Source of the DNA: a bacterium
GTDB lineage: Bacteria; Cyanobacteriota; Vampirovibrionia; Gastranaerophilales; JBAXKC01
Direction: 5' to 3'
Length of the DNA stretch: 64,000 bases
NCBI GenBank assembly: GCA_037137535.1
Contig: JBAXKC010000007.1
Span: 1-64,000 of the forward strand
Shown here: piece after piece, positions 19,789 to 36,752 of the stretch
How positions within the stretch are numbered: position 1 is the first letter of the stretch
How the letters are laid out: every line of letters begins with the position of its first letter
Translations under genes and position numbers: made by a program
The notes under the pieces: generated by a model
Told to the model about the DNA's origin: nothing
Databases searched by the model: none
What the model saw: the letters and a program-made list of their open reading frames with translations, nothing else

Positions 19789-20733
19789 TTATAATTTAAT
19801 ATAACTTTTAATTTTATTTTTTTCTGAAATAAATTCTGTTTGACTAACCGTCAAAGAATCTTTATTTTTTTCTGCTTTTTCAATATGGAACAAAGCATCT
19901 TCATATTCATTAGTTAGACTGAATACTCTAGCCATAGCAAAATGCAAATCACCGTTATCAGGACTTTGCATTATTGCAGATTCAATTATATCAAGTGCTT
20001 TGTCATACTCTTTCAGATAAACAAGGATTGAATAATAAGTTTTATAGGCAGCTATATCTTTAGGATTTAACTCAACAGTCTTATTTAAACAGGTCAAGGA
20101 TTCTTTTACATCACCCTTTTCATAATAAAGGCACGCTAAATTATAATAAGCCCAACTGTAGTCGGGATTTATGGCTAAAGCTTTTTGATAACCGTCAATT
20201 GCCTTATCCAGCTCTTTAAGTTTTTTATATTCAAAAGCAAGGTTAAAATAAGCAAAAGCATCCTTTGGATTATATTTTATAGTTTGCTCTAAATGATAAA
20301 TAGCCAAATCGATCATATTCTGTTTTGAATAGATACAACCTAAACAAAAATGAGTATTTGAATCCTCCAAATCAAGAGATAATGTTATTTTATATTCATT
20401 AATTGCTTCTTTTAAATTTTGCTCTTGTTCATATATAAAAGCAAGATTATAGTGATAGTCAGGCTCATCGGGAGCAAGACTTATTGCCTTTTGATAAGCC
20501 GTTTTTGCATTATTAAATAATTTCTGCTTTTCATAAACTATCCCCACATTAAAATGCAAATCTGCATTTTGAGGAAAAATTTTCAACAAAAGCTTATACT
20601 GTTCAAGCGCTTCAATTAAAAGATTTTCCTCTAAAAGAGCATCAGCATACTCTCTCCTTAGTTTATAATCGGAAGGAGTTTGACTAATTAATATTTTAAA
20701 AGTTTCTAACGTTTTCTTCTCTTTAAGATTCAT
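19789..20733 (-). CDS. Cytoplasmic TPR-repeat protein
   Basis: Repeated HFNVG / HYNLA / YFNLA / YYNLA...YQKA..L.P units. Confidence 0.9.
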   Translation of the reverse strand: MNLKEKKTLETFKILISQTPSDYKLRREYADALLEENLLIEALEQYKLLLKIFPQNADLHFNVGIVYEKQKLFNNAKTAYQKAISLAPDEPDYHYNLAFIYEQEQNLKEAINEYKITLSLDLEDSNTHFCLGCIYSKQNMIDLAIYHLEQTIKYNPKDAFAYFNLAFEYKKLKELDKAIDGYQKALAINPDYSWAYYNLACLYYEKGDVKESLTCLNKTVELNPKDIAAYKTYYSILVYLKEYDKALDIIESAIMQSPDNGDLHFAMARVFSLTNEYEDALFHIEKAEKNKDSLTVSQTEFISEKNKIKSYIKL

Positions 20734-20814
20734 ATATTAATAATACATATAAAGGTGCTTTTGTACCATAAAAAGTTTAGAACCTCTTAGTTTATACTTT
20801 TAATTTTTAATAAT

Positions 20815-21165
20815 TTATTGAATAACGCTCTTATCTAAATCTTCAATAAAAGAAATAGCAATTTGAGACAGATTTCTTTTTGTTTCAAGTGGAGAGTGTC
20901 TTAATAACTCAACAAAGATTCTAAGAATCTCATCTTCATCATACCATCTACGTCTTCTGTATTCTTGCGTTGCAAGCTTAAAAACGTCATCAGGCAACAT
21001 ATCGCAAAAAGGAGGTTTTTCTATAATTTTCTCCATTAAATAACTTGAAATTTGTCGTTTAATTACTTCCGGTAAAGTTTCCATACTTTTTACACATTTT
21101 TCGACAATCGGGTCTTCTTCGTACCATCTCTTAATTGTTGCTGAATTTTCGTCCATTTGCTGCAC
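20815..21165 (-). CDS. Hypothetical protein with two RWY[DE] repeats
   Basis: KRWYEEDP and RRWYDEDE internal duplication; GTG start. Confidence 0.7.
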   Translation of the reverse strand: MQQMDENSATIKRWYEEDPIVEKCVKSMETLPEVIKRQISSYLMEKIIEKPPFCDMLPDDVFKLATQEYRRRRWYDEDEILRIFVELLRHSPLETKRNLSQIAISFIEDLDKSVIQ

Positions 21166-21272
21166 CCCTGCAAATTATCTGTTATAACTGATAAAGTGAT
21201 TTTTACTATATAATTTTATTATAAATAGACTCTTTAAAAATTAATCAATAAGGTTAAAATATAAGGTCAACT

Positions 21273-21482
21273 ATGTATATAATTGAAATTATAGCCAAAT
21301 TTCTACAAAATCGCAAAGAAAAAAAACAACTGAATATAGATTTGGATGAAGAACTTGAAAGCTGCGAACATATTTATGTTGCTATAGATAGCTCGAAAAC
21401 CTATCTGGCCTGTTACAAATGCGGAAATTTAATAGAAAATAATGGTGAAATAAAAATTAACAAAAATCCTTTCAGTCTTTAA
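21273..21482 (+). CDS. Small hypothetical protein, possible Zn-binding
   Basis: AAGG RBS; CEH...CYKC. Confidence 0.55.
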   Translation: MYIIEIIAKFLQNRKEKKQLNIDLDEELESCEHIYVAIDSSKTYLACYKCGNLIENNGEIKINKNPFSL

Positions 21483-21483
21483 A

Positions 21484-22266
21484 TTATGGATAAATTCTTG
21501 AAAATTGTGAAAAATATTGAGCTAATACATTCATAAGCAGCGGCATTGTTAAAATCAAAACAGCTATTCCTAAAACAGGCTTAAACATTGCACTTAACTG
21601 AAATACGTTAACCTGAGGAGCAGTTTTTGAAACTATACCTAAAATAACATCCATAGCAAGCGTTGCCATCAAGACGGGAGCTGAAAGCTGCATTCCTACA
21701 ATAATTACGTTAGAACTTACCATTATTAAATAATCAAGATTCATTAAAGTTTTTAATGGAAAAGCAACACCATATATCGGAAAAATCTCGAAACTTCGCT
21801 GAAAAGCCGCTATTAACCAGTATATGCCTCCTTCTTCAATAAAAATAAGAACAGACAAAAAGGTAAAGGCCTTACCGATAATAGAAGTTTGACCTCTTGA
21901 ACTCGGGTCAAACATTACAGCAGAAGATAATCCCATCTGCATGTTTATAATATCCCCTGCCGAGCCGACAGCTGACATAATAATAGTTCCAATAAGCCCA
22001 ATAATAGCCCCAACTCCGCTATTTAGCAAAATAGAAAGAAACATTGAATTATGAGGTGGAGGATTTGACGGGTTTAAAATACTAACAAAACAAATTGACA
22101 TTAGAAAAGTAAATCCCATTTTAAGCATGAAGGGAACGTCTTTACGGCTAAAAACAGGAGCTGTAGACACAAAACCAAGAAATCTTGCCATAATGTAAAG
22201 CCCTGCTTCAGTTTTCATACTGAATTCAGGAAAGTTTTTAAATACGCTAAGAAAATTTTCTAACAT
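21484..22266 (-). CDS. fliR: Type III export-gate protein FliR/SctT
   Basis: ARFLGFVSTAPVF, AGDIINMQMGLS..MFDP, GIVSKTAPQVNVF; start at MLENF, adjacent to the upstream stop. Confidence 0.92.
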   Translation of the reverse strand: MLENFLSVFKNFPEFSMKTEAGLYIMARFLGFVSTAPVFSRKDVPFMLKMGFTFLMSICFVSILNPSNPPPHNSMFLSILLNSGVGAIIGLIGTIIMSAVGSAGDIINMQMGLSSAVMFDPSSRGQTSIIGKAFTFLSVLIFIEEGGIYWLIAAFQRSFEIFPIYGVAFPLKTLMNLDYLIMVSSNVIIVGMQLSAPVLMATLAMDVILGIVSKTAPQVNVFQLSAMFKPVLGIAVLILTMPLLMNVLAQYFSQFSRIYP

Positions 22267-22267
22267 T

Positions 22268-22693
22268 TCACTTTGCCTTAAATTGTGGTGGTTGGTCAAT
22301 AATCATATTATCATTTAGCTTTAGCGGTTTTAACGGAGGCTTATCTATTTCTATCAAAGAAGCTTCATTATTCTTCTTTATCTGTTTTTGTTTAGTTATC
22401 AGTATTTTATAAATATACAAATTTGTTTTTGTCCAAACAATAAGATTAGTATCTTCCGCCTGCATTGCCGAAATAATCAACTCATAATCATCATTAAATA
22501 TTTTTGTATTTTGTTCAACCTTTAGAGCTTTTGCATTTCCAACTTCAATTTTTTTAAAGTTTTCAGAAAATTTTAAAATGTAAACATCACCTTTGTTAAT
22601 TTTAATTTGCTTAAAAACCTCACTTCTTACTGAGTTTAAAGGCATAAATATTGCTAAAAATAAGATTATAGCCGTAATAACAAAGTTTTTCAT
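22268..22693 (-). CDS. Secreted stand-alone pilus-secretin N-terminal domain (T2SS-T3SS_pil_N-like)
   Basis: Signal peptide, then KGDVYILKFSENFKKIEVGN...ELIISAMQAEDTNLIVWT, which aligns by eye to GKSQLIRFNEPVKRISLTN...ELLLNGKTAGLTSLIIWG of the secretin at 34365..35726. Confidence 0.75.
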   Translation of the reverse strand: MKNFVITAIILFLAIFMPLNSVRSEVFKQIKINKGDVYILKFSENFKKIEVGNAKALKVEQNTKIFNDDYELIISAMQAEDTNLIVWTKTNLYIYKILITKQKQIKKNNEASLIEIDKPPLKPLKLNDNMIIDQPPQFKAK

Positions 22694-22703
22694 TGTTTAC
22701 CTC

Positions 22704-23198
22704 TTATCGTTGAGAGTAAATTCTTCTTGCTTCCGCCATATTCGCACCTACTGAAGGGCCAACATTGGCTTTTCCGTAAGACTCTTTTAGCTTCTTATCA
22801 GAATAAGGCACTTTTCCAGGATGTTTCATCATAGTATCAACATCAGGACGTTTTATAAAACGAAAATCCTTTTCATCTTCATAAAATGGACGTGTTTTCC
22901 CCGGAGGTTCGGGAGCAAGGGCGTAATCACCCTGCTTTGGAATAACTTGAAGCGCCAAATGTATTGAATCTTCAAGGTATTCTGATAATATTTGTGTAAA
23001 AAGCCTACCCATCATTACAATTACGAGGAAAACAGCAAGAATTTTAGGAGCAGCTGCGATTGTTTGTTCCTGTACCTGCGTTACCGCCTGTAATATCCCT
23101 ACTACAAGACCTATACCTGCCGCAACAAGCACAACAGGCATTGAAATAATCAATGTCGCAACAAATCCTTTGGCTAGTTGTTCAAAAAGTAAATCCAC
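22704..23198 (-). CDS. fliQ: FliQ/SctS with a long C-terminal extension
   Basis: PVVLVAAGIGLVVGILQAVTQVQEQTIAAAPK; 164 aa. Confidence 0.9.
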   Translation of the reverse strand: MDLLFEQLAKGFVATLIISMPVVLVAAGIGLVVGILQAVTQVQEQTIAAAPKILAVFLVIVMMGRLFTQILSEYLEDSIHLALQVIPKQGDYALAPEPPGKTRPFYEDEKDFRFIKRPDVDTMMKHPGKVPYSDKKLKESYGKANVGPSVGANMAEARRIYSQR

Positions 23199-23217
23199 TT
23201 TTAGTATTCTCCAAAAT

Positions 23218-23859
23218 TTAATTGAAACTTTGGACGAGATTAGTGACTATAAGCCCCCATCCGTCAATTGCAACAAATATCAATAATTTAAACGGTAACG
23301 AAATAATGGTAGGGGAAAGCATCATCATACCCAGAGCCAGCAATATATTCGCAACCACAAGGTCAATGACGACGAAAGGTATAAATATCAAGAAACCAAT
23401 CTCAAAGGAGGTCTTTAATTCACTAATGATGTATGCAGGAGCTACTTCAAAAATACTTATCTCCGTAATATCCTTAGGTGGAGTTTTTCTCATTAATTTG
23501 ATAAAGAAAGCAACGTCTTTTTCACTGGTCTGCCTTAACATAAATCGCTTAAGGGGCTCAGAACCTTCCTTTATGGCTAAAGGCAGCGATCCAGTCTGAA
23601 CATAAGGTTTATTGCCCGCGTCATACATCTGTTGAAAAGTAGGCCCCATTGTATAAAAAGTCAAAATTAGTGATAAACCTATAATTACCATCCCCGGCGG
23701 AACTTGCTGTGTACCAAGAGCCGTTTTAAGAATTGAAAATACAATAGTAAATCTTAAAAAACTGGTCATACAGACAAAAACAAATGGCAACAAAGAAAAA
23801 ATCGCCATCGTTATAAGTAGCTGAATAGCGGGATCTAATGTTTTTAGCGTCTGGTCCAT
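23218..23859 (-). CDS. fliP: FliP/SctR lacking an N-terminal signal peptide
   Basis: MTSFLRF..LGTQQVPP, PAYIISELKTSFEIGF, GMMMLSPTIISLPFKL..DGW; 213 aa. Confidence 0.95.
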   Translation of the reverse strand: MDQTLKTLDPAIQLLITMAIFSLLPFVFVCMTSFLRFTIVFSILKTALGTQQVPPGMVIIGLSLILTFYTMGPTFQQMYDAGNKPYVQTGSLPLAIKEGSEPLKRFMLRQTSEKDVAFFIKLMRKTPPKDITEISIFEVAPAYIISELKTSFEIGFLIFIPFVVIDLVVANILLALGMMMLSPTIISLPFKLLIFVAIDGWGLIVTNLVQSFN

Positions 23860-23873
23860 ATTATCTCCTGAAA

Positions 23874-24281
23874 TTATTTTCGATTAATAAAATTCTTTAA
23901 CATATTACATAAAGGATTTTGCGGATTATTAAAATTTAAAAGCTCTTCCATTGGAAACTCTTTTAAAGGAAGTTTTTCATCTATTATTTGATTTTCCCCT
24001 TGTTGAATTTCAACTTGTTGAGGAATATTATTATCATCAAGTTTAGTCAGAAAATTTATGTTATTTAAATCACTTGATACTAAAAATCTTTCATTGCCTG
24101 CTTTAACAAGATAAATTGATTTTCTTGGTTCAAGAGGTAAAATTCCTTCAAGTTCAAGAAATCCGTTTTTCATTTTATTTGTTGAAAATTGTAAGGTTTT
24201 TTTAGCGATAACTATGGCAACAAAAATCAAGCCCATCATTGCCAGCATATACACTATAAAGCCTGTTAAGTGGTGATACAT
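23874..24281 (-). CDS. fliO: FliO-like protein
   Basis: N-terminal TM, then LPLEPRKSIYLVKAGNERFLVSS...INFLTKL; directly upstream of fliP. Confidence 0.75.
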   Translation of the reverse strand: MYHHLTGFIVYMLAMMGLIFVAIVIAKKTLQFSTNKMKNGFLELEGILPLEPRKSIYLVKAGNERFLVSSDLNNINFLTKLDDNNIPQQVEIQQGENQIIDEKLPLKEFPMEELLNFNNPQNPLCNMLKNFINRK

Positions 24282-24292
24282 ATTTATTTTCC

Positions 24293-25501
24293 CTATAAAT
24301 CATCATCAATTTCAAAATCACTATAATCAAAATCAGAATCATCCATTTCTTCGAGGTTAATCTGTTCGCCCTCACCCATATTTTCTGAATAATCCTCATT
24401 TGACGGTTCTTCTTGTTCCGGTTCAGCTTGTGGCTTAGGATCATGATAAACCTTATTTATCTTAACTCCATATTTATCGCCTATTATAACAAGTTCACCT
24501 GATGCAATCTTTTTACTTTCAACGCTTAAAGTTATTTCGTTTCGCACAATAGGTGCTATATCTACAACAAGACCTTCTGAAATTTGCCTTAATTCGCCAA
24601 GAGTCATTTTTATCTTTTCAAATTCGGCAGATACATCCACCTGAAGGCTATCCCATATATCTTGAATTGAACGCTGTTCCATGTCAGTCATTTCAACTTC
24701 GTCCTCATCATCAATATCCACAACAATAGAAGGATTAGGGTTTACATTAAATAATATAGGCTCATGTGCCAATATTGTCATTTGATTTAAATTACTATTC
24801 TCTAATATTATATAATCATCCGACTCAAGATTTTTTATTCCTTCGAGCGTTATTTTTGATTTTCCTACATAAATACTAGCCATAGTAGCACTTTGTTCAA
24901 ATTGCATAATATCCAGCAAGTCATTTTGCTCTTCAATATATTGTACTTGCTTATAAATAAATTCAGGGAATGATATTACTAACTTCCCCACACTTTCTTC
25001 CTCATGTTGTTCTGAATAAAGAGAAAATGTTAAATGAAGCATTTTTTTATAATTGCTGCCCTGTGATATAAATTTTAATGCTTTTTTTCCGGAAAGAAAC
25101 AATTCTTTAAAATTTTTAAAAAGATACTCAATATAAACTGTTAAAATTCGGCTTTCCAACTTTGTTATATCTTTTATTCGAATTTCTTCAAACGTTCCGT
25201 TTTTTCCACCAAGAGAATTATACAAAACAATACCGGCGGCATCGGACGAAATTTTAAAAGTAATAGCGCATTTATCATTAAGGCTTATTTGAGTAACAAA
25301 AAACTCTTCACCTTTCCAAATATTATCATTAGAAGTCATTGAGATCAGCTTAAAATATAAATTCGCATTAAGAATAGAATGACTTATTTCTTGTAAAGAA
25401 GGGCAAAATGCATTTTCAAACATGGTAAAACTGCGGCTATAATCAAGATGACCACTATATCCGTCACTTTCTATATGATAATTATGCTGAGAACTCGTCA
25501 T
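24293..25501 (-). CDS. FliM/FliN-family C-ring protein with two SpoA domains (SctQ-like)
   Basis: SIYVGKSKITLEGIKNLESDDYIIL and VSAEFEKIKMTLGEL...IASGELVIIGDKYGVKI; GGAG RBS before MTSSQ. Confidence 0.85.
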   Translation of the reverse strand: MTSSQHNYHIESDGYSGHLDYSRSFTMFENAFCPSLQEISHSILNANLYFKLISMTSNDNIWKGEEFFVTQISLNDKCAITFKISSDAAGIVLYNSLGGKNGTFEEIRIKDITKLESRILTVYIEYLFKNFKELFLSGKKALKFISQGSNYKKMLHLTFSLYSEQHEEESVGKLVISFPEFIYKQVQYIEEQNDLLDIMQFEQSATMASIYVGKSKITLEGIKNLESDDYIILENSNLNQMTILAHEPILFNVNPNPSIVVDIDDEDEVEMTDMEQRSIQDIWDSLQVDVSAEFEKIKMTLGELRQISEGLVVDIAPIVRNEITLSVESKKIASGELVIIGDKYGVKINKVYHDPKPQAEPEQEEPSNEDYSENMGEGEQINLEEMDDSDFDYSDFEIDDDL

Positions 25502-25568
25502 TTTACTCCGCCCGACACTATGCATTCTTTAATTTTAATGATGATATAAAGACAGTAAACCCCTAATA

Positions 25569-25595
25569 TAAAACTATATTTTTTTTAGCCGATAC
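25569..25595 (+). promoter_or_regulatory. Sigma-28 (FliA/SigD)-type promoter facing the GAF histidine kinase
   Basis: TAAA-N15-GCCGATAC. Confidence 0.6.
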
Positions 25596-25767
25596 ACATC
25601 AATCGTCTAATGTAATTATATGCTGAATAGTTTAGTTATGAAAGTTTAATAAGAAATATTTAAAAAAAACTACAAATATAATCTTCAAAAAATTATAGAA
25701 AATAGGGCAATTAAACTTATTTAATTTAATGATTATTATGAATTTATAAATTTAGGAGATATTTATT

Positions 25768-28098
25768 TTGTCTAAAAATAATAAAAAAAATAAAGAAAAT
25801 CCTCTCTTTAATTTGGATTCTGAAACTAAAAATAATAGAAAAACACAAAAAACAACTGTTCATGTCCTTGCTAATATTTTAAGTATAGATAACTGCCATT
25901 TTATTGAATATGATGAAAATTCTATTCCTAAATTCGCCGAAGTAGGGTTTAACTATTCAAATAAACAAACTCCAATCAGTAATAATCTCAATGAAGATTA
26001 TGATTTTAATTGCTTGACTGATTTATTAATAAATTTATATAAAGAAAAAAAAGAAAATAAACTTTATATTAAAGATATCGAAGAATATATTAAAAATAAC
26101 AATATTTCATCAGATAAAATTAAAAAATTCTTTAAAGATTTAAATTTTAAGTCAGGTTTATTTCTTTCAGTATTTGAAGATGATAAACCTAAAAGTATAT
26201 TTATAACTAACTTTACAGAAAAAACCATGGCACCGGGTGCTGAAAAAAAATTAATCGAATATGATGAAAACTTTATTAAAATATTAATTGATTATGTGGA
26301 TTTGATTATTACTAAAAATGAAATGGAATCCATAATAAAGAAAATGAGCAAAAGCTCTGACTTATTAAAAGAAATAAGACATTTAGTTGAAAAATCATTA
26401 GATATTAATGTAATTAAGTCAGGTATTATAAAGGAATTAGTAAAAGTTTTTAATCCTGACAGATGCTTTTTTAGAGTTTATGACAATAATAGAAAAATTT
26501 TATATTCTGTTGAAAATGAATATCTTGTAAGTCGTGATGTTGAATCAATAACTTATTATATTTATCCGAGGGAAGCAAACGAATACAGCATTTTAAATTA
26601 TTCCGAAAAAGGTACATATATAGTTGAAGATGTTGACTCATTTATAAATGAACATAACTATTCGCAAATTTCCCATTTAAAACAAACTATTCGTGTTTTT
26701 AAAGAACAGAATTTAAAATCTTTTTATGGATTTGCTATTTATTATGAAGATAAATTAGCTGGAATTTTAGAACTTCAATATACTAAGGAAAAAGTAATTC
26801 TAACGAAGGAAAACATTCATACTCTTAAAAATATAGCAACTCAAGCAAGTATTGCATTAAAAGAGGCAGAGTTTTTTGAATTTCAAAAATATACTGCAAA
26901 AAAAGAGCGCATTTTAAGAGAAATTACGGAGCAATTATTTCTTATCAATGAAGAAAATGAATTATTTGACTACATTCTTAAAAAAATTGTTGAAATATTT
27001 AATATAGATGGGGCAATGTTTATTGAAATCCCTCAAGAAAAAGGATCATCTCCAACAATAAAATATGAATATCAAACAGATACCCGTTTTCCTTCGTTGT
27101 TACATGCAGAATTACCTGTTGAATGCTTGAAAACTTATGGACATATGATATCCACATTTTTTCCTGTTGTTGTTAATAATACACATAATTTTTACGCAGA
27201 TGAACAAGGAAGACAATGTTTTTATAATCAATATTTAGTTGAAGCGTTTATGACTACTCCTATTATAACAGAGACTTATCCTCATTTAGCAATAGGAGGG
27301 ATGGTTCTTTTTACTCATTCTCCAAGAATTTGGTTAAAAAATGAAATAGATTTTATGAGGGGTATTGATGATGTTATAATGAGTGCTATAAATCGAATTA
27401 AAAGATTAAGAGAACTTGACGAATTAAGAAACTCTTTCATCCAAACAATGACTCATGATTTACAAATACCCTTGGTCGGAGAAAATAAAGCTCTTGAATA
27501 TTTATTAAAAAAATCCGACAATGAAACTATTGGGAGCATTAAACCGATACTGAATGAATTAAAATTAAATAATGAATATAGTCATGAAGCATTAATTAAG
27601 TATATTGAAATATATAAATATGAATCAGGATCAAGAACGTTAAACTTAAAAAATATAAATATCTCAACTGTTGCTGATAAAGCAATTAAGAATATAGAAC
27701 ATTTAATCACAAGTAAGAATATTGATTTTAAAATTAATATTCAAAATAATCTTCCATTATTAAAAATGGAGGCACAAGAAATATCTAAAGTAATTTATAA
27801 CTTTATAGACAATGCTATTTCATATTCCGAGGAAAATTCAAAAATTGAACTGAATATAAAAGAAAATAAAGATAAAATTTATGTTTGCGTAAATAATAAT
27901 GGTCCGGCAATACCTAAAGAACTGCAATCTATGATATTTAATCGCTTTAAAATGATAGAAAGAACTGAAAGAAAAGTTGGTTCAGGATTAAGCTTATATT
28001 TGAGTAAATTAATAATAGAAGCTCATGGCGGCTCTATTTGGTATGAAACAAATCAAAAAAATGGCTCAATGTTTTGTTTTACTCTTCCAAAAGAATAA
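25768..28098 (+). CDS. Cytoplasmic multi-GAF sensor histidine kinase
   Basis: GAF-like repeats (FNPDRCFF, RIWLKNEIDF), THDLQIPL H-box, NFIDNAISYS, GSGLSLYL..IIEAHGG. Confidence 0.88.
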   Translation: MSKNNKKNKENPLFNLDSETKNNRKTQKTTVHVLANILSIDNCHFIEYDENSIPKFAEVGFNYSNKQTPISNNLNEDYDFNCLTDLLINLYKEKKENKLYIKDIEEYIKNNNISSDKIKKFFKDLNFKSGLFLSVFEDDKPKSIFITNFTEKTMAPGAEKKLIEYDENFIKILIDYVDLIITKNEMESIIKKMSKSSDLLKEIRHLVEKSLDINVIKSGIIKELVKVFNPDRCFFRVYDNNRKILYSVENEYLVSRDVESITYYIYPREANEYSILNYSEKGTYIVEDVDSFINEHNYSQISHLKQTIRVFKEQNLKSFYGFAIYYEDKLAGILELQYTKEKVILTKENIHTLKNIATQASIALKEAEFFEFQKYTAKKERILREITEQLFLINEENELFDYILKKIVEIFNIDGAMFIEIPQEKGSSPTIKYEYQTDTRFPSLLHAELPVECLKTYGHMISTFFPVVVNNTHNFYADEQGRQCFYNQYLVEAFMTTPIITETYPHLAIGGMVLFTHSPRIWLKNEIDFMRGIDDVIMSAINRIKRLRELDELRNSFIQTMTHDLQIPLVGENKALEYLLKKSDNETIGSIKPILNELKLNNEYSHEALIKYIEIYKYESGSRTLNLKNINISTVADKAIKNIEHLITSKNIDFKINIQNNLPLLKMEAQEISKVIYNFIDNAISYSEENSKIELNIKENKDKIYVCVNNNGPAIPKELQSMIFNRFKMIERTERKVGSGLSLYLSKLIIEAHGGSIWYETNQKNGSMFCFTLPKE

Positions 28099-28121
28099 CC
28101 GGATAGCAATTATTATTTTGG

Positions 28122-28145
28122 AATGCGTTATATAGATAACGCATT
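28122..28145. promoter_or_regulatory. Perfect hairpin between the kinase and the 28160 gene (terminator or operator)
   Basis: AATGCGTTAT-ATAG-ATAACGCATT. Confidence 0.5.
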
Positions 28146-28159
28146 ATAAGGTTTTTCAA

Positions 28160-29635: not shown

Positions 29636-29639
29636 CAGA

Positions 29640-30572
29640 CTATTTTCCTATACCCGATTTGCCAAAAGTGCCCATAAGGCTTATTGCCGCAGGTCCCATT
29701 AAAACTATAAACATTGAAGGTAATATAAATAAGACCATCGGAATTATCATCTTTACACTTGCTTTAGCCGCAAGAGCTTCAACACGTTGACGTCTTCTTG
29801 TTCTTACGGTATCGGCATAGACGCGTAAAGATTGAGCTATACTTGTTCCCAACTTATCGGTCTGAATTAATAAAGCTGTAAAACTTTTCAAATCAGGGAC
29901 ATTATTTCTATTTGCAAGATTTCTGAAAGCATCCTGCCTTTGAACACCTGCTAAAATATCTTTATTTACTTTTCCAAGCTCTTTTGCAAGAACAGGAGCC
30001 GTTCGGTTAAATTCCACCGATACTCTTGATAACGCAGCATCTAAACCTAATCCGGCTTCAACGCATACGGTTAATAAGTCTAACGCATCAGGAAGATTAT
30101 AAGCTATATCGTCGGAACGTTTTTTAATTATTGATTTTAATTGAAAATCCGGAAATTTAAACATTCCATAAGTGCAAATAAATAGAGAAAATAACGAAAA
30201 TAAAGGAGCTGACCTGTTCATAAGAGACATACAAATTCCGATAATGACACCCATTAAAGCAAAAAATATTTTTTTCAATACGAATTTAGAGGCTTCTTCT
30301 TCTCCTGAAGCATAGCCTGCCTCTAAAAGAAGTTGTCTTGTCGATTTCATTTTATCTTTGCGTTTTAAAAAACTTGCTAAAAATGGCTCTAATAACTTAT
30401 AGATTTCTTCTTTAAGACTAAATTTTTCTTCTTTGTTTTCTTCTTCTATATGATTAACTTGTGAAATCTTCGTTAATCTTGCTTGAAGAAGATCATTATG
30501 TTCATCATCAATAAAAATATATATTAAAATAGAAATTGAAATTATTAAAAACATAAGAATAATGATATTCAT
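29640..30572 (-). CDS. tadC: Tad inner-membrane platform protein TadC
   Basis: LPDALDLLTVCVEAGLGLDAAL, LIQTDKLGTSIAQSLRV, KMIIPMVLFILP. Confidence 0.93.
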   Translation of the reverse strand: MNIIILMFLIISISILIYIFIDDEHNDLLQARLTKISQVNHIEEENKEEKFSLKEEIYKLLEPFLASFLKRKDKMKSTRQLLLEAGYASGEEEASKFVLKKIFFALMGVIIGICMSLMNRSAPLFSLFSLFICTYGMFKFPDFQLKSIIKKRSDDIAYNLPDALDLLTVCVEAGLGLDAALSRVSVEFNRTAPVLAKELGKVNKDILAGVQRQDAFRNLANRNNVPDLKSFTALLIQTDKLGTSIAQSLRVYADTVRTRRRQRVEALAAKASVKMIIPMVLFILPSMFIVLMGPAAISLMGTFGKSGIGK

Positions 30573-30585
30573 TTAAATCTACTCC

Positions 30586-31575
30586 TTATATTTTAATATT
30601 TGTAATTTGTTTAATACATAGAAAACCGATAAAACCCATTGTTACCGCCATTGCTAAAGCCATCTGCCCCATAATATTTTCAAAAAGCGGCTTCATATAA
30701 CTTGGATTCATTACCCAAATAAGCAAACCAATCGCAACAGGAGCTAAAGCAAGCACAATTCCTGACATTTTAGCCTGCGCAGTCTGTGCATTAAGCTGAC
30801 CGATAAGTTTAAATCGCTCTCTTATCGTATGCCCAAGATTATCTAATATTTCAGCTAAATTTCCGCCAATTTCCCTTTGAATAAGCACAGCTGTAATAAA
30901 AAACCTTAAATCAACGCTTTCAGGCATATAATTACTCATATTATCTAGAGCATCCCTTGTATCTCGCCCTAAAGAAATATCATCAACAACAACTTTAAAA
31001 ACCTGTGATGTAGGTTCAGGCATTTCATTAATAACAAGAGCAAAAGAAGAAGACAAAGAATGACCGGCTCTTAAAGCACTTGAAATAAGACCGAGCGCAT
31101 CGGGAAATTGTTGGCTGAATAATTCATGTCGTTTTTTTATACGCATTCTTATCATAAGAAAAGGACTATATGATAATATAATCCCTATTACAGTAAAAGC
31201 AACAGAATTTGCAGGTATAACCAAACCAAGGAAAAAGAAAAAGCTAAAAATACCTGCTGACATTAATAATAAAATATCAACTGTTATTTTAATATCAGCT
31301 GTTTTCAACATTCTCTTTAATTTTTCAGTCGATTTTAATCTATTTAAAATTGCGCCAATAAATAAAATTCTATATTCATCTGATGAAAAAAATGCTTTAA
31401 ATTGTTGTTGCCTTAAACTTTCATTTTTTTTAGTTAAAAATACTTTATTTTTAATATTTCTAAGTCTTTTTGCCACTGATTCATCAATATTAACAACATT
31501 ATTGTTAAATTGAGTAATAACAAAAAATATTGAAAAAATTAATATTAAAATAAATGCAAAGTTTAAAATATCCAT
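30586..31575 (-). CDS. tadB: Tad inner-membrane platform protein TadB
   Basis: QFPDALGLISSALRAGHS, IQREIGGNLAEIL. Confidence 0.93.
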   Translation of the reverse strand: MDILNFAFILILIFSIFFVITQFNNNVVNIDESVAKRLRNIKNKVFLTKKNESLRQQQFKAFFSSDEYRILFIGAILNRLKSTEKLKRMLKTADIKITVDILLLMSAGIFSFFFFLGLVIPANSVAFTVIGIILSYSPFLMIRMRIKKRHELFSQQFPDALGLISSALRAGHSLSSSFALVINEMPEPTSQVFKVVVDDISLGRDTRDALDNMSNYMPESVDLRFFITAVLIQREIGGNLAEILDNLGHTIRERFKLIGQLNAQTAQAKMSGIVLALAPVAIGLLIWVMNPSYMKPLFENIMGQMALAMAVTMGFIGFLCIKQITNIKI

Positions 31576-31586
31576 AAAAACTCAAA

Positions 31587-33113
31587 TTATCTTTTCAATC
31601 TATTTAATAGAGAATTTGATTCGTTACTACTCTTAAAAAGTTCTTCATTTTTAACTTTAGTGTTGTTATTTTGCGAATTATTATTAGAAGTAACTTCTTT
31701 TGTTGTTTTCAAATTTGGAGGATTTTTACAAAGATAAACAGGCGGTGTTTTAGCATCAAAAATAGCCAAAGATAAATTAATGCCTTTAGACTTACATCTA
31801 TCAGCAAATAAAGGTCTCACACCCGTAGCAACATGTTGACCTATTATTTTTCCATTTTCATCTATGCCTGTCTGCTCCCATTTAAAAATATCCTGCATAG
31901 TAATTGTAGAGCCCTCTAATCCTGTCAATTCAGTTATATGAGTAACTCTTCTTGTGCCATCACTAAGCCTGCTTGCCTGAACTATGATATGAACAGCCGA
32001 ACTGACTTGAGTTCTGATAGTTCTTTCAGGCAATTCAACACCTGAGAACATAACCATTGTCTCTAGTCTGCTTAATGCATCTCTCGGAGTGTTTGCGTGA
32101 AGTGTAGTTAAAGAACCATCATGACCTGTATTCATCGCCTGTAGCATATCTAAAGTTTCAGCGCCACGACATTCCCCTATAACAATACGATCAGGTCTCA
32201 TTCTTAAAGCATTAATAACTAAATCTCTAGCGGTTATAGCTCCTGTTCCTTCAATGTTTGAAGGTCTTGTTTCAAGCCTTACAACATGTTCTTGCTGTAA
32301 ATTCAATTCAGCAGAGTCTTCGATAGTTACAATTCTTTCATCTTCAGGAATTTGAGCTGATAAGCTGTTTAAAAGAGTTGTTTTTCCTGCACCTGTTCCA
32401 CCCGATATAACAATATTTAATCGGCTTTTAACTGCGGCTTTTAAGGTATCTGCCATTGCAGTAGTCATTGATCCCCATTGTAGAAGACTTTCCAGCGTAG
32501 CGACATCAGACTTGAATCTTCTTATTGAAAGGGATGGTCCATCTATTGCTAATGGAGGAATAATAGCATTAACCCTTGACCCGTCAGGTAATCTTGCATC
32601 AACCATCGGAGACTTTTCATCAATTCTTCTTCCTACTTTCGATACAATTCTTTCAATGATATTCATTAAATGAGCATTATCTTTAAAGGTTATTGAAGTT
32701 TTATGAATTTTACCATGTTTTTCAACATAAACCTGCTTTGCTCCATTAACAAGAATATCAGAGACTTCAGTATCAGCCAGTAAAATATCGAGAGGTCCAT
32801 ACCCCTTAACTTCATTCAAAATCTCTCTGATTATAATTTCTTTTTCATTTTTATTTAACGGAGTTGTTCCAAAATCACTCGAAAGTTTTTTATCAATAAA
32901 CTGGCGAATAAATTGTTTTTGTTCTTCTTCGGAATAAGTATCCCAAACAGGTGTAGAATTAACCTTTTCAATCAATAAAGTATGAATTTTTTCTTTGATA
33001 TTCATAAATTCAACGGTTAAAGGCTCATTATACAATGATAATTCATTATATGGTTTAACATCAGACGATTTAGACGGTGGAAGATTTTTACTTAACCTAT
33101 CTCTTAATGACAT
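31587..33113 (-). CDS. cpaF: Tad ATPase CpaF/TadA
   Basis: DARLPDGSRVNA, GGTGAGKTT, IEDSAEL, LRMRPDRIVIGECRG, AMNTGHDG. Confidence 0.96.
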   Translation of the reverse strand: MSLRDRLSKNLPPSKSSDVKPYNELSLYNEPLTVEFMNIKEKIHTLLIEKVNSTPVWDTYSEEEQKQFIRQFIDKKLSSDFGTTPLNKNEKEIIIREILNEVKGYGPLDILLADTEVSDILVNGAKQVYVEKHGKIHKTSITFKDNAHLMNIIERIVSKVGRRIDEKSPMVDARLPDGSRVNAIIPPLAIDGPSLSIRRFKSDVATLESLLQWGSMTTAMADTLKAAVKSRLNIVISGGTGAGKTTLLNSLSAQIPEDERIVTIEDSAELNLQQEHVVRLETRPSNIEGTGAITARDLVINALRMRPDRIVIGECRGAETLDMLQAMNTGHDGSLTTLHANTPRDALSRLETMVMFSGVELPERTIRTQVSSAVHIIVQASRLSDGTRRVTHITELTGLEGSTITMQDIFKWEQTGIDENGKIIGQHVATGVRPLFADRCKSKGINLSLAIFDAKTPPVYLCKNPPNLKTTKEVTSNNNSQNNNTKVKNEELFKSSNESNSLLNRLKR

Positions 33114-33127
33114 TTGTTATGAACCTC

Positions 33128-34363
33128 CTACTTTCCGTTTTTTGTTAGTCTGCTTAAAAAAGGTGATATAGACTTCATACTAAATAAGCTTTTATTCTTT
33201 TTAGCCTTTCCTTGAAATTTATTGTCTCTTACTATAACAGAATTACTCAACAATGCGGCTAATTCCATAAAACTTTGACTAATATTAGAATTAGGGTCAA
33301 TTTTAGAAATAGGAACACCTCTGTTAATAGCAGACATTACGGACAAGTAATTATTAGGAAACTTCCAATATACAGAATGCCCTAAAGCATCTTCAACATC
33401 TTCAACCGTAATTTCTTCATTAGGCATATAACGGTTGATAATCAACTTTACTTTATCTTCGTTATAATCAAGCCTGTTAAACAGGTCAATACATCTTTGA
33501 GAGTTTCGTATAGTAGGAAGATTTACCATTGAAACCAGAAGAATATTATCCGAGTTATCAAGTGAACACAGCGTTTTACTGTCAAAATTACTGCTTGTAT
33601 CAATAATTATGTAGGAAAAAACTGATTTTAATATACTGAGAACAGTATTAATCTGCTCAGAGGTAATTTCCTCAGCCTGCTCCAAATATGGAGGGTCTGC
33701 GAGTATATACAAATCTTTATCTTTATATTTTTCAAGAGTGCTTAGAAGAAATGACTCATCAACCCTGTTTAAATGAGTAACAACATAAGAAATATCAAAA
33801 GAAGGAGAAATATCCAAAAAGGTTGTCACATCGCCAAGTTGAAGGTTCAAATCAAGTAAGGCCACTTTTTTACCTGTAAGATCCGCAAGACTCACCGCAA
33901 GATTAGCGGCAATTGTAGTTTTTCCAATACCACCCTTGTTGCTGAAAACTGTTATTATTTTGCTCTGATGTCTTTCTTCATTATCAACATTAATAATGCT
34001 TTTAGCCTTATCAAGTGCATTTTTAAGCTCGTTTGTCTGAATTGGCTTTGATAAAAATTCTCTTGCCCCTGCTCTCATTGTCTTTAAAACAATATCTGTA
34101 CTTACATCAGACGAAGTTACAAAGATAATAGTGTTTTTAGCTTGAATAGAAAGTTTTTCTATTACTTCAAGAGCATACTCTTCATTATCAGATATATCAA
34201 TAATCGCAACAGACGGTTTGTCCTGAATAATAGCATTATAGCCTGCGACTAAAGTATTATAATCTCCGATGACTTTAACATTTGGCATTTCATCTAAAGT
34301 GCTTTTTAGTATTGGGCTTTGATCCTCAAAGCTGTCAACCACTATCATTGAGATTAAATCCAT
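33128..34363 (-). CDS. cpaE: CpaE/TadZ (receiver-like domain plus MinD/ParA-like ATPase)
   Basis: MRAGAREFL receiver-like domain, KGGIGKTT, DLNLQLGD; GGAGAGG RBS. Confidence 0.9.
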   Translation of the reverse strand: MDLISMIVVDSFEDQSPILKSTLDEMPNVKVIGDYNTLVAGYNAIIQDKPSVAIIDISDNEEYALEVIEKLSIQAKNTIIFVTSSDVSTDIVLKTMRAGAREFLSKPIQTNELKNALDKAKSIINVDNEERHQSKIITVFSNKGGIGKTTIAANLAVSLADLTGKKVALLDLNLQLGDVTTFLDISPSFDISYVVTHLNRVDESFLLSTLEKYKDKDLYILADPPYLEQAEEITSEQINTVLSILKSVFSYIIIDTSSNFDSKTLCSLDNSDNILLVSMVNLPTIRNSQRCIDLFNRLDYNEDKVKLIINRYMPNEEITVEDVEDALGHSVYWKFPNNYLSVMSAINRGVPISKIDPNSNISQSFMELAALLSNSVIVRDNKFQGKAKKNKSLFSMKSISPFLSRLTKNGK

Positions 34364-34364
34364 A

Positions 34365-35726
34365 TTATAAGCCCTCTCCTGAAACATTGGAATCGATAAT
34401 TCTAGGAGTTACAAATATTAAAAGCTCTGTTTCATCTTTTCTTATATCAGATCTCTTAAAGAAATTACCTATAATCGGTATATCGCCTAAAGTAGGGATT
34501 TGGTCTTTTGATGAATTATCTGTTCTTTTCAACAGTCCCGCAATAACAAGAGTCTGACCGTCCATTAACTGAACAGTAGTTTCAGCTTTTCTTGTTTTAA
34601 ATCCGTAAATTTTTGAATTTTGATTTGTAACAGTTACGGTAGAATCTATTTCACTTACCTCAGGAATTATATTTAATGAAATAAGTTTTGATTCAGGCTG
34701 TATAGTAGGGGTAAAAGTAACATTTACACCTGTATCTTTATATTCATAAGATACATTTCCGCCTTCACCGATACCGCTTGGAACAGGAACTTGATAACCT
34801 GCGTTAAAACTGGCTTTATTGCCATTTGTCGAAACAAGTTTAGGCTCTGCAAGTATTTTAACAAGACCTTTTTGCTCTGCCATACTTAAAGCAGTACTTA
34901 CGCTTTGAGAATTAAATCCAAACCCTCTTAATCCCTTTGAAATATCCGGCTCAAAAGACATACCGTATTGATTCCCCGATATTGCCGTAGCAGCACTTGG
35001 AATAACACCAAATGTAAAATTATCAGCATATCTGCTTAATGCGAAACTTGAACTTATTATTTTTGTAAACGAACGAGCAGCTTCTGTAACTTTAACTTCA
35101 AGTACAATTTGAGGAGTTTTACATTCAGAAAGATCAACAAATTTATAGCCGTATGCTTCAGTTATACTTTTAATTTTATCTCTTACAATAGAAGAAGAAA
35201 CATTTCCTGCAAGTATAACATTTTCAGAATTAGTAAATTTTAAATCCACTTTTTCATTCGGATATACTGATCTGACAGCTTTTAATAAAATAGTAGGATC
35301 ATTTTTAATATTCAAATCAAAGAAAACAGGTTCACCTGTTTCTCCCCATATAATTAAACTTGTTAAGCCTGCTGTTTTACCGTTTAAAAGCAATTCATTA
35401 GGCGAAAGCATTATTATATCGGCAAGTGAAGGATTTGTTAAAGATATTCTTTTTACAGGCTCATTAAATCTTATAAGCTGAGATTTCCCCACAAAAGCAG
35501 TCATTTCAGAAATACTACCTTTTAAATCAGCGTTAACTTTTTCCGTAGGAGTAAAAAAGGTATCAGAAATTTTTCTGGAGGCTTTATCATCAATAGACAA
35601 AGGAGAAAGATTCATTTCTCTAAGCTGTGGAGCAGCATCAGCATTAACCGACTGCGAACAAGAGAATAAAAGCGCAATTGATAACAAGCCAAATATTATA
35701 TTTTTTTTCTGATAATTATAGTTCAA
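34365..35726 (-). CDS. cpaC: Tad secretin CpaC/RcpA
   Basis: Signal with lipobox-like LFSC, pil_N domain, ILAEPKLV...ASFNAG, TLVIAGL, IPTLGDIPIIGNFF..ETELLIFVTP. Confidence 0.92.
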   Translation of the reverse strand: MNYNYQKKNIIFGLLSIALLFSCSQSVNADAAPQLREMNLSPLSIDDKASRKISDTFFTPTEKVNADLKGSISEMTAFVGKSQLIRFNEPVKRISLTNPSLADIIMLSPNELLLNGKTAGLTSLIIWGETGEPVFFDLNIKNDPTILLKAVRSVYPNEKVDLKFTNSENVILAGNVSSSIVRDKIKSITEAYGYKFVDLSECKTPQIVLEVKVTEAARSFTKIISSSFALSRYADNFTFGVIPSAATAISGNQYGMSFEPDISKGLRGFGFNSQSVSTALSMAEQKGLVKILAEPKLVSTNGNKASFNAGYQVPVPSGIGEGGNVSYEYKDTGVNVTFTPTIQPESKLISLNIIPEVSEIDSTVTVTNQNSKIYGFKTRKAETTVQLMDGQTLVIAGLLKRTDNSSKDQIPTLGDIPIIGNFFKRSDIRKDETELLIFVTPRIIDSNVSGEGL

Positions 35727-35737
35727 CTCATTTACCT

Positions 35738-36694
35738 TTAATAATCGCTGTTAAAATTAACTTCTGACTTAACATTTGCCTGAATAAGCTCTACTGATTT
35801 TGTATGCTGCAACTTTGGAGCAGCTGGTAGCGGCAAGCCTGACGAAGAAATAGCCGGAAGTGTCGGAACTCCGGAAATGGAAGGGACTTCAGGAAGTTTA
35901 TAACCAGGGATTATTGATCCATAATTATGACCTGAACTTGAAGCTGAATGCCTTTTCTTATAAGACTTGTTTCCGATAATTTTTTTATCTGTAAAATTTC
36001 TAGCCACAACTTGAAGCTTTCCACTCATCATTGCATCAACTATCCTTGCCGAAGAGCCTGCCGGAATCTGAAAGGTTATTGCTGTTGCCTTTATTACAGA
36101 TTGAGCTGTGCCATCAGGCACACCTTCTAACGAGATTATCTTTACGTTTTGCAAAATAAGCTCAGGCTGTTCTGTCGCTGTTTTTGCCATTGAAATAATA
36201 TCAACATAACTTCCTTTTGTAATATAAGAAGCTAAGCCTTGAATATAGGACACAGGAATGGATATAGCCCTCATTCCTTCAGGAAGATCAAGCCCGGCAA
36301 AACTATTTTCCATTACATCGCTATTTTTTATAAAATCTCCTGCCTTTATGGCTTTTGCACTGATTTTACCAACAAGAGAATATAAATTATTTGATACATC
36401 GGGTGGCATTAATTTTGCGTTAATTTGCTTTGCTTCCATCATTTCTGTGGTTAACACAACGCCTGAAGGGATATTTTGTCTTGAAACAACAGCAAGATTA
36501 GAATTAACAACATTAACACCGCTTTGCAAATTTTGTGATAATCTGCCAAGTTCTGTTTTTTGAGATTGCAGCTCTTTACTCAAATCCTGAATTACCGCAT
36601 CTTTTTTAGTAAAAGATGTGAATATACCAAAAGCGGAGATAATGCCTGCTGTAACCGCTATCATTATTTTTTTTCTATTTGACTTTGAACGCAT
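35738..36694 (-). CDS. cpaB: Flp pilus assembly protein CpaB/RcpC
   Basis: TM, SAF-like domain, LPEGMRAISIPV...G..VDII, ILQNVKII. Confidence 0.9.
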   Translation of the reverse strand: MRSKSNRKKIMIAVTAGIISAFGIFTSFTKKDAVIQDLSKELQSQKTELGRLSQNLQSGVNVVNSNLAVVSRQNIPSGVVLTTEMMEAKQINAKLMPPDVSNNLYSLVGKISAKAIKAGDFIKNSDVMENSFAGLDLPEGMRAISIPVSYIQGLASYITKGSYVDIISMAKTATEQPELILQNVKIISLEGVPDGTAQSVIKATAITFQIPAGSSARIVDAMMSGKLQVVARNFTDKKIIGNKSYKKRHSASSSGHNYGSIIPGYKLPEVPSISGVPTLPAISSSGLPLPAAPKLQHTKSVELIQANVKSEVNFNSDY

Positions 36695-36724
36695 ATCCTA
36701 TCCCGATCAAATACTTTATTTTAG

Positions 36725-36752
36725 ATATCGGCTATCGCAAAGATTAACTTTA
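36725..36752 (-). promoter_or_regulatory. Sigma-28 (FliA/SigD)-type promoter of the tad operon
   Basis: Minus strand TAAAGTTA-N12-GCCGATAT (TAAA-N16-GCCGATAT), 30 nt upstream of the cpaB ATG. Confidence 0.7.

Follow-up and report, generated by a model that had tools for sequence, protein, structure and literature searches.

A divergent second flagellar-type gene set in Vampirovibrionia, probably an export apparatus, beside an independent Tad operon

A flagellum-derived apparatus can be put to use without a filament or rotation, as in the injectisome, whose derivation from the flagellum is described in passages of Abby and Rocha (2012; PMC3459982). The flagellin-less strain Lysobacter enzymogenes OH11 has been reported to secrete toxic proteins via its remaining flagellar type III secretion system (T3SS), in dependence on fliI and flhB (passages of PMC7688988), and Buchnera aphidicola, as stated in part of PMC8109811, keeps flagellar basal bodies that are used without a filament; in both organisms these are the only flagellar genes, a stripped single system. 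Here we describe a second, divergent set of flagellar-type genes, hereafter set 2, in a genome of the class Vampirovibrionia, lineage Gastranaerophilales / Melainabacteria; one of its clusters lies in a stretch of 64,000 nucleotides (nt) that was analysed at its full length and is called the window below (positions 1 to 64,000 of contig JBAXKC010000007.1, our contig C7, of assembly GCA_037137535.1). Our analyses favour, with moderate confidence, the reading that set 2 is a flagellum-derived, non-rotary export apparatus, probably secretory, that is old and class-wide in Vampirovibrionia. Like the injectisome, set 2 (known here from its genes alone) would be a flagellum-derived apparatus used without filament or rotation; unlike the Lysobacter and Buchnera systems, it represents a separate paralogous lineage that forms a long-stemmed clade and coexists with a complete flagellum in many members.

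Parts of such a set are already on record. Di Rienzi et al. (2013; PMC3787301), in the passages concerned, report 13 flagellum genes common to all four Melainabacteria genomes, which are the same genes as those of set 2; for ACD20 they place flgG, flgG, flgC, fliF, fliH, flhA, fliI and flgE on one scaffold and also give a second flhA, fliP-fliQ-(one unlisted gene)-fliR and flhB, and for MEL.A1 they ascribe the absence of the filament, the cap, the junction and the L/P rings to genome reduction. According to the relevant part of Soo et al. (2014; PMC4040986), six of nine genomes hold a subset only, read as function loss, and a section of a 2026 preprint (10.64898/2026.04.24.720558) counts about 25% of genomes with complete flagella, the remaining genomes keeping flhB, fliI and flgG with a 'postulated' secretion role. 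The subset is not stated to be a distinct, class-wide paralogous system beside a full flagellum in these passages of the three sources, and our literature search, which had the supplements of Di Rienzi et al. (2013), of Soo et al. (2014) and of the 2026 preprint outside its scope, returned no account of a paralogous second system of flagellar type for either Melainabacteria or Vampirovibrionia. If our reading is true, that of the 'partial flagella' reported since 2013 shifts from decay to a distinct conserved organelle, and this in the sister class of the photosynthetic cyanobacteria, which includes common gut commensals.

Two flagellar-type gene sets in one genome

Genes were called from a listing of open reading frames (ORFs) and Pfam scans in a genome of 81 contigs and 2.95 Mb, and family searches of the whole genome returned two copies each of FliP, full-length FlhA, FliF and FlhB. 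Set 1 comprises fliPQR-flhB-flhA on contig C3, flgB-flgC-fliE-fliF-fliG-fliH-fliI on C36 and flgF-flgG-flgA-flgH-flgI-flgJ-flgN-flgK-flgL with fliS on C15, together with FlgE on C1, MotAB on C21 and a second MotB on C1, and the genome has seven Flagellin_N matches, which are six flagellins and FlgL. Set 1 is a complete canonical flagellum, and set 2 is a divergent second set. Both sets also occur on the single-contig genomes of two relatives (G044 and G055); their coexistence is therefore not a matter of bin contamination. The two MotB genes of the present genome lie at C21:15592 and C1:332985, where one canonical flagellar set would need one.

Cluster A of set 2 is the fliMN-fliO-fliP-fliQ-X-fliR block of the window, in which the following genes were recognized with Pfam.

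24293-25525, minus strand: fliMN2, C-ring or sorting-platform-like (FliMN_C 59.5 bits; FliM just 12 bits)
23874-24281, minus strand: fliO2 (FliO 36.6 bits, cut-off 22; position conserved in relatives)
23218-23859, minus strand: fliP2, export-gate subunit (FliP 238 bits)
22704-23198, minus strand: fliQ2, unusually long at 164 amino acids (aa) (Bac_export_3 70 bits, residues 8-75)
22268-22693, minus strand: X (T2SS-T3SS_pil_N 23.5 bits, cut-off 23)
21484-22299, minus strand: fliR2 (Bac_export_1 172 bits)

A preliminary description of positions 19789 to 36752 had listed fliM/N-fliO-fliP-fliQ-X-fliR, two opposite-strand genes and cpaB-cpaC-cpaE-cpaF-tadB-tadC, a list that the ORFs and Pfam bear out, as they do its statements that FliO is retained and that the window holds no rod, hook, ring, flagellin, motor or Flp genes (0 among the 59 ORFs scanned, that is, all non-overlapping ORFs of at least 70 aa, 24 + 35 in two scans). 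It had named as fatal to its own reading the case that these were the only fliOPQR of the genome, serving a canonical flagellum, with the linkage to the tight adherence (Tad) genes and gene X unconserved in relatives; they are not the only fliPQR, while the Tad linkage is unconserved and X is conserved just patchily.

FliP2 is 47% identical to the FliP1 encoded on C3, and FliR2 is 26% identical to FliR1. Residues 293-359 of the fliMN2 product form a FliN/SpoA domain, its tail is acidic, and solely the FliN-type C-domain was matched. FliQ2 has a C-terminal extension of about 75 residues with the motif M-(K/R)-x-P-G-K-x-P-Y, which FliQ1 (89 aa) lacks; among set-2 FliQ proteins the extension is always present, spans 45-200 residues and conserves the motif, and the orthologues across the class measure 136-293 aa.

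The remainder of set 2 is spread over other contigs. Cluster B, on C13, begins with h311 (no informative Pfam match), two FlgF/G-like proteins, FlgB, FlgC and a lytic transglycosylase, and continues with FliE, FliF, h313 (313 aa, weakly FliG-like), FliH, FlhA and FliI. A trio on C9 encodes FliJ, a FliK-like protein and a 277-aa FlgE-like protein (FlgE-like2), which shows the FlgE/F/G D1 domain alone (43 bits) and no Flg_bbr_C match. FlhB2 (C21:47278-48351) precedes a sigma factor of the sigma-70 family (228 aa); the pair occupies C21:47278-49069 (L029:15278-17069). The autocleavage motif of FlhB2 reads NPIH, as against NPTH in FlhB1 and in the FlhB of the flagellin-less relative G028. Set 2 contains, by Pfam, the whole export gate (FliPQR, FlhA, FlhB and FliO) and, in cluster B and kept in relatives, the MS ring protein FliF, FliE and the rod proteins FlgB/C/F/G. 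Four further proteins have the FlhA cytoplasmic domain only (FlhA-C; C2:107681-109057, C34:182-1675, C27:25255-26343 and C60:3211-4173; L013-L016) behind unrelated N-termini, and one paralogue of about 495 aa occurs in nearly every relative, including those of the flagellin-less family f3. These soluble FlhA-C paralogues could serve set 2 as adaptor or decoy rings.

The protein at the FliG position, h313, has an all-helical model (predicted local distance difference test score, pLDDT, 84) and only weak FliG_N/M or MgtE_N matches in Pfam, with none to FliG_C. A Foldseek search with it gave nothing at E <= 1e-3, hhalign assigned it a probability of 3.7% against FliG1, a PDB profile search gave FliG at E 0.12, and comparison with the N and M domains of FliG gave VIA Z scores of 5.6-6.3, which lie in the noise range for helical proteins. 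A clear FliG assignment was dropped on these weak Foldseek, hhalign, PDB-profile and VIA results, and 'weakly FliG-like' was kept; no FliG with a torque domain was found for set 2.

Gene X encodes a protein of 141 aa whose model (pLDDT 82) shows seven strands forming a sandwich, besides a signal helix and a disordered tail in which D-x-P-P motifs occur. Its best matches among PDB structures are the N-domains of VirB9 from type IV secretion core complexes, with the closest (7o3t_B) at E 1e-4 and a root-mean-square deviation (rmsd) of 2.0 A over 79 columns; the three compact VirB9-N matches (7o3t_B, 6gyb_B and 8rt6_v) range from E 1e-4 to 3.5e-4, with rmsd 2.0-3.0 A over 78-90 columns, and X orthologues give weak Pfam CagX matches of 26-28 bits, below the cut-off of 34. 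X thus shares with VirB9/CagX the seven-strand beta-sandwich of the N-domain, whereas it lacks the C-terminal barrel domain of VirB9 (X proteins have 117-200 aa) and differs further in its D-x-P-P tail motifs and in its location within a fliPQR operon. The preliminary description had taken X for a free copy of the Tad secretin N-domain, which holds at the level of the domain family and with a marginal score, but not as a recent copy, given the VirB9-like fold and an identity to the N-domain of the same genome's CpaC of 25% over 61 residues (E = 0.001). A sequence search placed X in the fliQ2-fliR2 interval of 20 of 40 relatives; family f11, which belongs to another order, has it there too, and it is missing from that place in the inspected neighbourhoods of G024, G015, G016, G136, G044 and G087. 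From its predicted structure, X is best described as a small, apparently secreted beta-sandwich protein, a patchy accessory gene of set 2.

Compared with the flagellar basal body, all set-2 genes that can be recognized fall into flagellar families, FliO among them, and the order flgB-flgC-..-fliE-fliF-(fliG)-fliH-..-fliI-fliJ-fliK-flgE resembles that of flagellar operons. On the other hand, set 2 differs from a flagellum in that flagellin is absent from carriers that lack set 1, with searches for FlgI and MotB, made in f3 alone of these families, negative as well; in the all-helical, weakly FliG-like protein at the FliG position; in its short FlgE-like protein and long-tailed FliQ; in the position of FlhA between fliH and fliI; in the extra soluble FlhA-C paralogues; and in an FlhA that scores under the NCBIfam cut-off. 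The injectisome is set apart in other ways, since FlhA2 falls outside the SctV clade (support 100) and under the SctV cut-off, and set 2 keeps FliO, full-length FliF, FliE and rod proteins and is without a dedicated secretin. The only secretin near set 2 is the Tad protein CpaC, and this linkage is absent in relatives. Set 2 would thus be an independent derivation from the flagellum and not a member of the injectisome family.

Distribution and ancestry of set 2

Relatives were sampled as 40 genomes of the same order and, more widely, as 120 genomes of the class. FliP2 orthologues with 66-78% identity are present in 38 of the 40 relatives, in one of them as contig-end fragments, and FliP2 is the sole FliP in 10 of 10 genomes (99% complete) of family f3. 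No flagellin was found in f3 (0/10 in the order sample, 0/24 in the class sample); FlgI, which occurs as a single copy per flagellated genome, was likewise found in 0/10 (FlgH was not searched in relatives), and MotB_plug was above cut-off in none of four f3 genomes, with two sub-threshold matches of 19.0 and 17.4 bits. All 10 have FlhA2 and one FlhA-C paralogue, without FlhA1, and all 10 have FlgE-like2. Five f3 genomes each hold one FlhB, one T3SS ATPase and just 2-3 Flg_bbr_C (rod-type) proteins of set 2, and the Flg_bbr_C matches of f3 all lie in the rod cluster, FlgK and FlgL not having been searched directly. For example, in G028, an f3 genome of five contigs, every retained gene is nearer to the set-2 copy (FlhB 61% versus 32%, FliI 75% versus 50%), the FliJ-FliK-FlgE-like trio is intact, and so is the FlhB-sigma pair, whose sigma factor is 69% identical to that of the window genome.

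Across the class sample, Flagellin_N was found in none of the 45 genomes of families whose only FlhA is of the set-2 type (f3 0/24, f15 0/9, f16 0/12), f15 and f16 having one full-length FlhA each. The families with both FlhA types all have flagellin (f11 2/2, f13 23/23, f14 14/14, f18 9/9, f19 1/1 and f20 1/1), and two families have neither FlhA type. Flagellin therefore tracks FlhA1, and not FlhA2, across these genomes.

Gene order is kept to a varying extent. Cluster A is present in all eight relatives inspected, although the contig of G005 ends after fliQ2, and its first gene is the fliMN2 orthologue in all eight as well as in f11, f18 and f16; the fliR2 orthologues of relatives share 44-54% identity. 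Cluster B is complete or nearly so in five of the eight, is without rod genes in G016, and in two f3 genomes is reduced to fliE-fliF-h313-fliH-flhA, with the rod genes and fliI elsewhere; in G028 the rod cluster, FliI, the FliJ-FliK-FlgE-like trio and FlhB with its sigma factor stand elsewhere in the genome. Both clusters recur in other orders, completely in f11 and partially in f14, f18 and f20. In a genome of family f8 (G021, C11:11930-16014), flhA1 and flhA2 lie back to back on opposite strands, about 130 bp apart.

FlhA2 of the window genome and that of G028 score 670.4 and 701.0 bits against the NCBIfam FlhA model (TIGR01398, cut-off 772.1), for which FlhA1 scores 865.5 bits, and FlhA2 reaches 592.5 bits against the SctV model (TIGR01399, cut-off 692.25). 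Two FlhA trees were built, one of 52 rows (43 of 80 loci used; 10 of its 25 'flagellar' rows were labelled without an NCBIfam scan) and one of 50 rows (7 of 19 'flagellar' rows labelled without such a scan). In both trees the FlhA2 sequences of the class form one clade (support 100) on a stem of 0.96-1.58 changes per site, the FlhA1 sequences of the class form another (99-100), and SctV is a separate clade (100) that excludes all FlhA2; the branches inside the FlhA2 clade are as short as those inside the FlhA1 clade. These sequence comparisons place FlhA2 and FlhA1 both on the flagellar side of the FlhA/SctV split. The preliminary description had proposed trees of this kind as a check, and for FlhA they yielded a long-stemmed clade of its own apart from SctV, but one that is still on the flagellar side. 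Against solved structures, FliP2 likewise matched flagellar FliP with 189.6 bits and SpaP/SctR with 148.6 bits. Among 1.84 billion clustered proteins, just one full-length representative exceeds 41% identity to FlhA2, and other metagenomic proteins match its C-domain alone with 50-59% identity. A topology with FlhA1 and FlhA2 as one clade was not rejected by the approximately unbiased test (p 0.545), so that duplication within the class is possible; the data fit either a class-internal duplication or a lateral acquisition as the possible origin of set 2.

Possible roles of set 2

In the reading that we favour, set 2 would assemble an MS ring, an export gate and, with its length controlled, a short axial structure that resembles a rod or hook. 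It would neither rotate nor carry a filament and would work in protein export or secretion, with late substrates implied by the FliK-like ruler and the FlhB switch. X would be an optional, periplasmic VirB9-N-like sandwich that may form a collar round the rod. The preliminary description had proposed a flagellum-to-secretion exaptation, and this part of it is upheld in so far as the set is separate from the full flagellum, FliO is kept and the three set-2-only families are flagellin-less, but not in its tie to Tad. If set 2 works in this way, it would be a natural second conversion of the flagellum, independent of the injectisome; FlhA2, the long-tailed FliQ2, the FlgE-like protein, X, the FlhA-C paralogues and the linked sigma factor offer themselves as targets, and the flagellated members with both systems allow a clean comparison of the changes required. 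It is also conceivable, as a tentative proposal to be taken as a whole, that set 2 is a third, independently evolved type III machine beside the flagellum and the injectisome: a filament-less and stator-less device derived from a flagellar duplicate at the base of Vampirovibrionia, with its own sigma factor, FlhA-C adaptor rings, a long-tailed FliQ and sometimes an X collar, that would release proteins to the surroundings or deliver them into host or prey cells, including in human-gut members.

Several points weigh against an export apparatus, or at least limit it. The relatives are not independent, so that just two or three losses may account for the flagellin-less families; the place of FlhA2 within the flagellar radiation is unreliable (a long branch beside Devosia, support 82-92); FliK2 scores 26.2 bits, below its Pfam cut-off of 29.8; the FliG-like call for h313 rests weakly on synteny and faint matches; and set 2 might share parts with set 1 in flagellated genomes. 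Evidence of transcription amounts to a hint: an RNA library from the same sample as a run labelled freshwater metagenome, possibly the source sample, contains contigs that match parts of fliO2, fliMN2, the GAF histidine kinase gene, cpaC and cpaB with 100% identity; most of the stretch is uncovered, a gap that carries no evidential weight, and DNA carried over into the library may be the origin of these contigs. For set 2 we can name neither a substrate nor an outer-membrane conduit nor a secreted protein, secretion being our inference, and the four rod proteins, FliE and the lytic transglycosylase would also fit a purely structural periplasmic organelle.

This last point leads to the alternative that set 2 is a non-secretory envelope structure, such as a periplasmic rod, an anchor or a nanotube platform, which we regard as unlikely. 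A structure across the periplasm is suggested by the same rod proteins, FliE and transglycosylase together with the periplasmic VirB9-N-like protein; membrane nanotubes have been reported to use the flagellar export core as their platform (in passages of PMC6456723), and a 'hat-like' structure related to the flagellar T3SS is described in many bacteria in part of a preprint (bioRxiv 10.1101/2021.09.03.458937). Yet the ATPase complex of FliH, FliI and FliJ, the ruler-like FliK and the FlhB switch (NPTH in G028, NPIH here), all needed for ordered export, have been kept; self-assembly alone would be compatible with these export parts, but their upkeep for that purpose would be costly.

Dual flagellar systems are well known, and set 2 might thus be a second true flagellum that borrows the hook, ring, filament and stator of set 1 and has become stranded in flagellin-less lineages. 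Two MotB genes in this genome, a full rod with FliE, FliF and FliK-like and FlgE-like proteins, and the position of FlhA2 on the flagellar side would agree with such a flagellum, which is nevertheless very improbable considering that flagellated genomes have one FlgI each and f3 genomes none, that no set-2 FliG with a torque domain was found, that the FlgE-like protein has just 277 aa without a Flg_bbr_C match, that three families keep set 2 without flagellin and that FlhA2 scores under the curated FlhA cut-off.

There is even less to be said for set 2 as a decaying remnant of a flagellum without a function of its own, although passages of Di Rienzi et al. (2013; PMC3787301) and Soo et al. (2014; PMC4040986) read the subset in non-motile gut Melainabacteria as genome reduction or function loss, and filament, junction, ring and stator genes are missing in f3. 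Flagellated relatives have a distinct paralogous set beside the full set 1, and it is to this set, not to set 1, that the retained genes are orthologous; they are intact in 24/24 f3, 9/9 f15 and 12/12 f16 genomes, identity between families is high (FlhA2 74-76%, FliP2 66-69%, FlgE-like2 59-63%), gene order is kept across orders, and the branches of FlhA2 are as short as those of FlhA1.

The Tad operon and other features of the window

Upstream of cluster A, beyond a gap of 4.1 kb, the window carries a Tad operon (29640..36694, minus strand) with its genes in the usual order, CpaB/RcpC, CpaC/RcpA, CpaE/TadZ, CpaF/TadA, TadB and TadC, and with all six products above the Pfam cut-off. The operon, the sequence in front of it and the two spacer genes are as follows.

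36725..36752, minus strand: sigma-28/sigma-D-like candidate promoter, TAAA-N16-GCCGATAT, from a pattern search, 30 nt upstream of the cpaB start
35738-36694, minus strand: CpaB (Pfam RcpC and SAF)
34365-35726, minus strand: CpaC secretin (Pfam Secretin and pil_N)
33128-34387, minus strand: CpaE, receiver and ParA-type ATPase (Pfam)
31587-33113, minus strand: CpaF (Pfam T2SSE)
30586-31575, minus strand: TadB (Pfam T2SSF)
29640-30572, minus strand: TadC (Pfam T2SSF)
28160-29635, plus strand: 491-aa protein without a Pfam match above cut-off, spacer between the fli and Tad blocks
25768-28098, plus strand: GAF histidine kinase (Pfam), spacer between the fli and Tad blocks

The preliminary description had called this Tad operon pilin-less, which is correct for the window but not for the genome. 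A scan of small ORFs for the G-xxxx-EY signature of Flp found no match on the contig of the window; two Flp_Fap pilin genes lie outside it at C1:273302-273998 (41.6 and 47.3 bits, cut-off 32.2), and the genome has one Peptidase_A24 prepilin peptidase, of either the TadV or the PilD type, at C1:305437-305814 (56.8 bits). Since Flp pilins and a prepilin peptidase are encoded elsewhere in the genome, the Tad system appears complete by itself, and the operon is a separate, independent and ordinary Flp-pilus machine, which departs from described Tad/Flp systems in having its pilin genes unlinked, on another contig, and a CpaE with an N-terminal receiver domain.

The coupling of the fli and Tad genes that had been proposed does not recur in relatives, nor was conserved fli-tad synteny, which had been put forward as a check, found among them. 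CpaF orthologues with 66-74% identity occur in 20 of 40 relatives, and in the 18 that have both CpaF and FliP2 the two are on separate contigs in 18/18, a count that is weak alone given that many assemblies are fragmented. For that reason the flanks of fliMN2 were read in relatives, and none of four Tad-bearing genomes (G001, G025, G016 and G005) has a Tad gene in the 7.6-8.9 kb upstream of fliMN2. Conversely, the fli set occurs without a CpaF orthologue in families f3, f8 and f9, which make up 20 of the 40 relatives, and X is present in the Tad-less f8. As relatives with both systems show no linkage, the adjacency is private to the window genome, which is the sole sampled member of its family, and coincidental. 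This is sobering for the original finding, namely that the export gate and the Tad secretin and ATPase make up one hybrid secretion machine with X as a bridge to CpaC. The adjacency and common orientation of the two blocks in the window, the T2SS-T3SS_pil_N family common to X and CpaC and the RNA-library contigs over parts of both blocks speak for such a machine, but it is largely refuted by distribution and synteny and scarcely credible in view of the two opposite-strand genes that interrupt the blocks, the 0/18 relatives with both on one contig and 0/4 with Tad within 7.6-8.9 kb of fliMN2, the 20/40 relatives with set 2 but without CpaF, the presence of X in Tad-less f8, an X just 25% identical to the CpaC N-domain with its nearest fold in VirB9-N, and a Tad system that appears complete alone, with pilins and peptidase elsewhere. 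In relative G025 (C13:4044-14435), a Tad cpaF is found about 4 kb from the set-1 fliP-flhA genes and away from set 2; Tad genes thus neighbour different flagellar clusters in different genomes, set 2 here and set 1 in G025.

A sigma-28-like sequence in front of cpaB could bring the Tad operon under the control of a sigma factor of flagellar type; the link would then be regulatory and not structural. The sequence at 36725-36752 on the minus strand, TAAAGTTAATCTTTGCGATAGCCGATAT, ends at the last position of the stretch covered by the preliminary description and is an exact match to what we take to be the sigma-28/sigma-D consensus, and hence a lead only. The tight form of this pattern has 10 matches in the genome, which are partly a repeated element behind unrelated genes; matches sit behind flgE, fumarase and glycine dehydrogenase genes, and the genes downstream of others have no Pfam family. 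With several of the 10 behind unrelated genes, a sigma-28 regulon was not established.

Neither of the two spacer genes between the blocks, each of which has several paralogues in the genome, is kept beside fliMN2 in relatives. Two further genes follow fliR2 on its 3' side.

20815-21165, minus strand: 116-aa ORF without a Pfam match
19789-20733, minus strand: TPR protein (Pfam), with many TPR paralogues genome-wide

Both were considered as parts of set 2 and set aside, as they adjoin fliR2 in none of the eight relatives inspected, and this region (19789..21165) probably lies outside the set-2 system. The C-terminal part of the 491-aa spacer protein, about 100 residues (~325-445), recurs on seven other contigs with 29-37% identity. 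Elsewhere in the window, a 775-aa FHA protein (43271-45598, plus strand) shows a weak match to the T3SS YscD cytoplasmic domain (28.6 bits, cut-off 33.2), and a TPR protein at 56660-57805 (plus strand) is fused to a retropepsin-like aspartyl protease domain.

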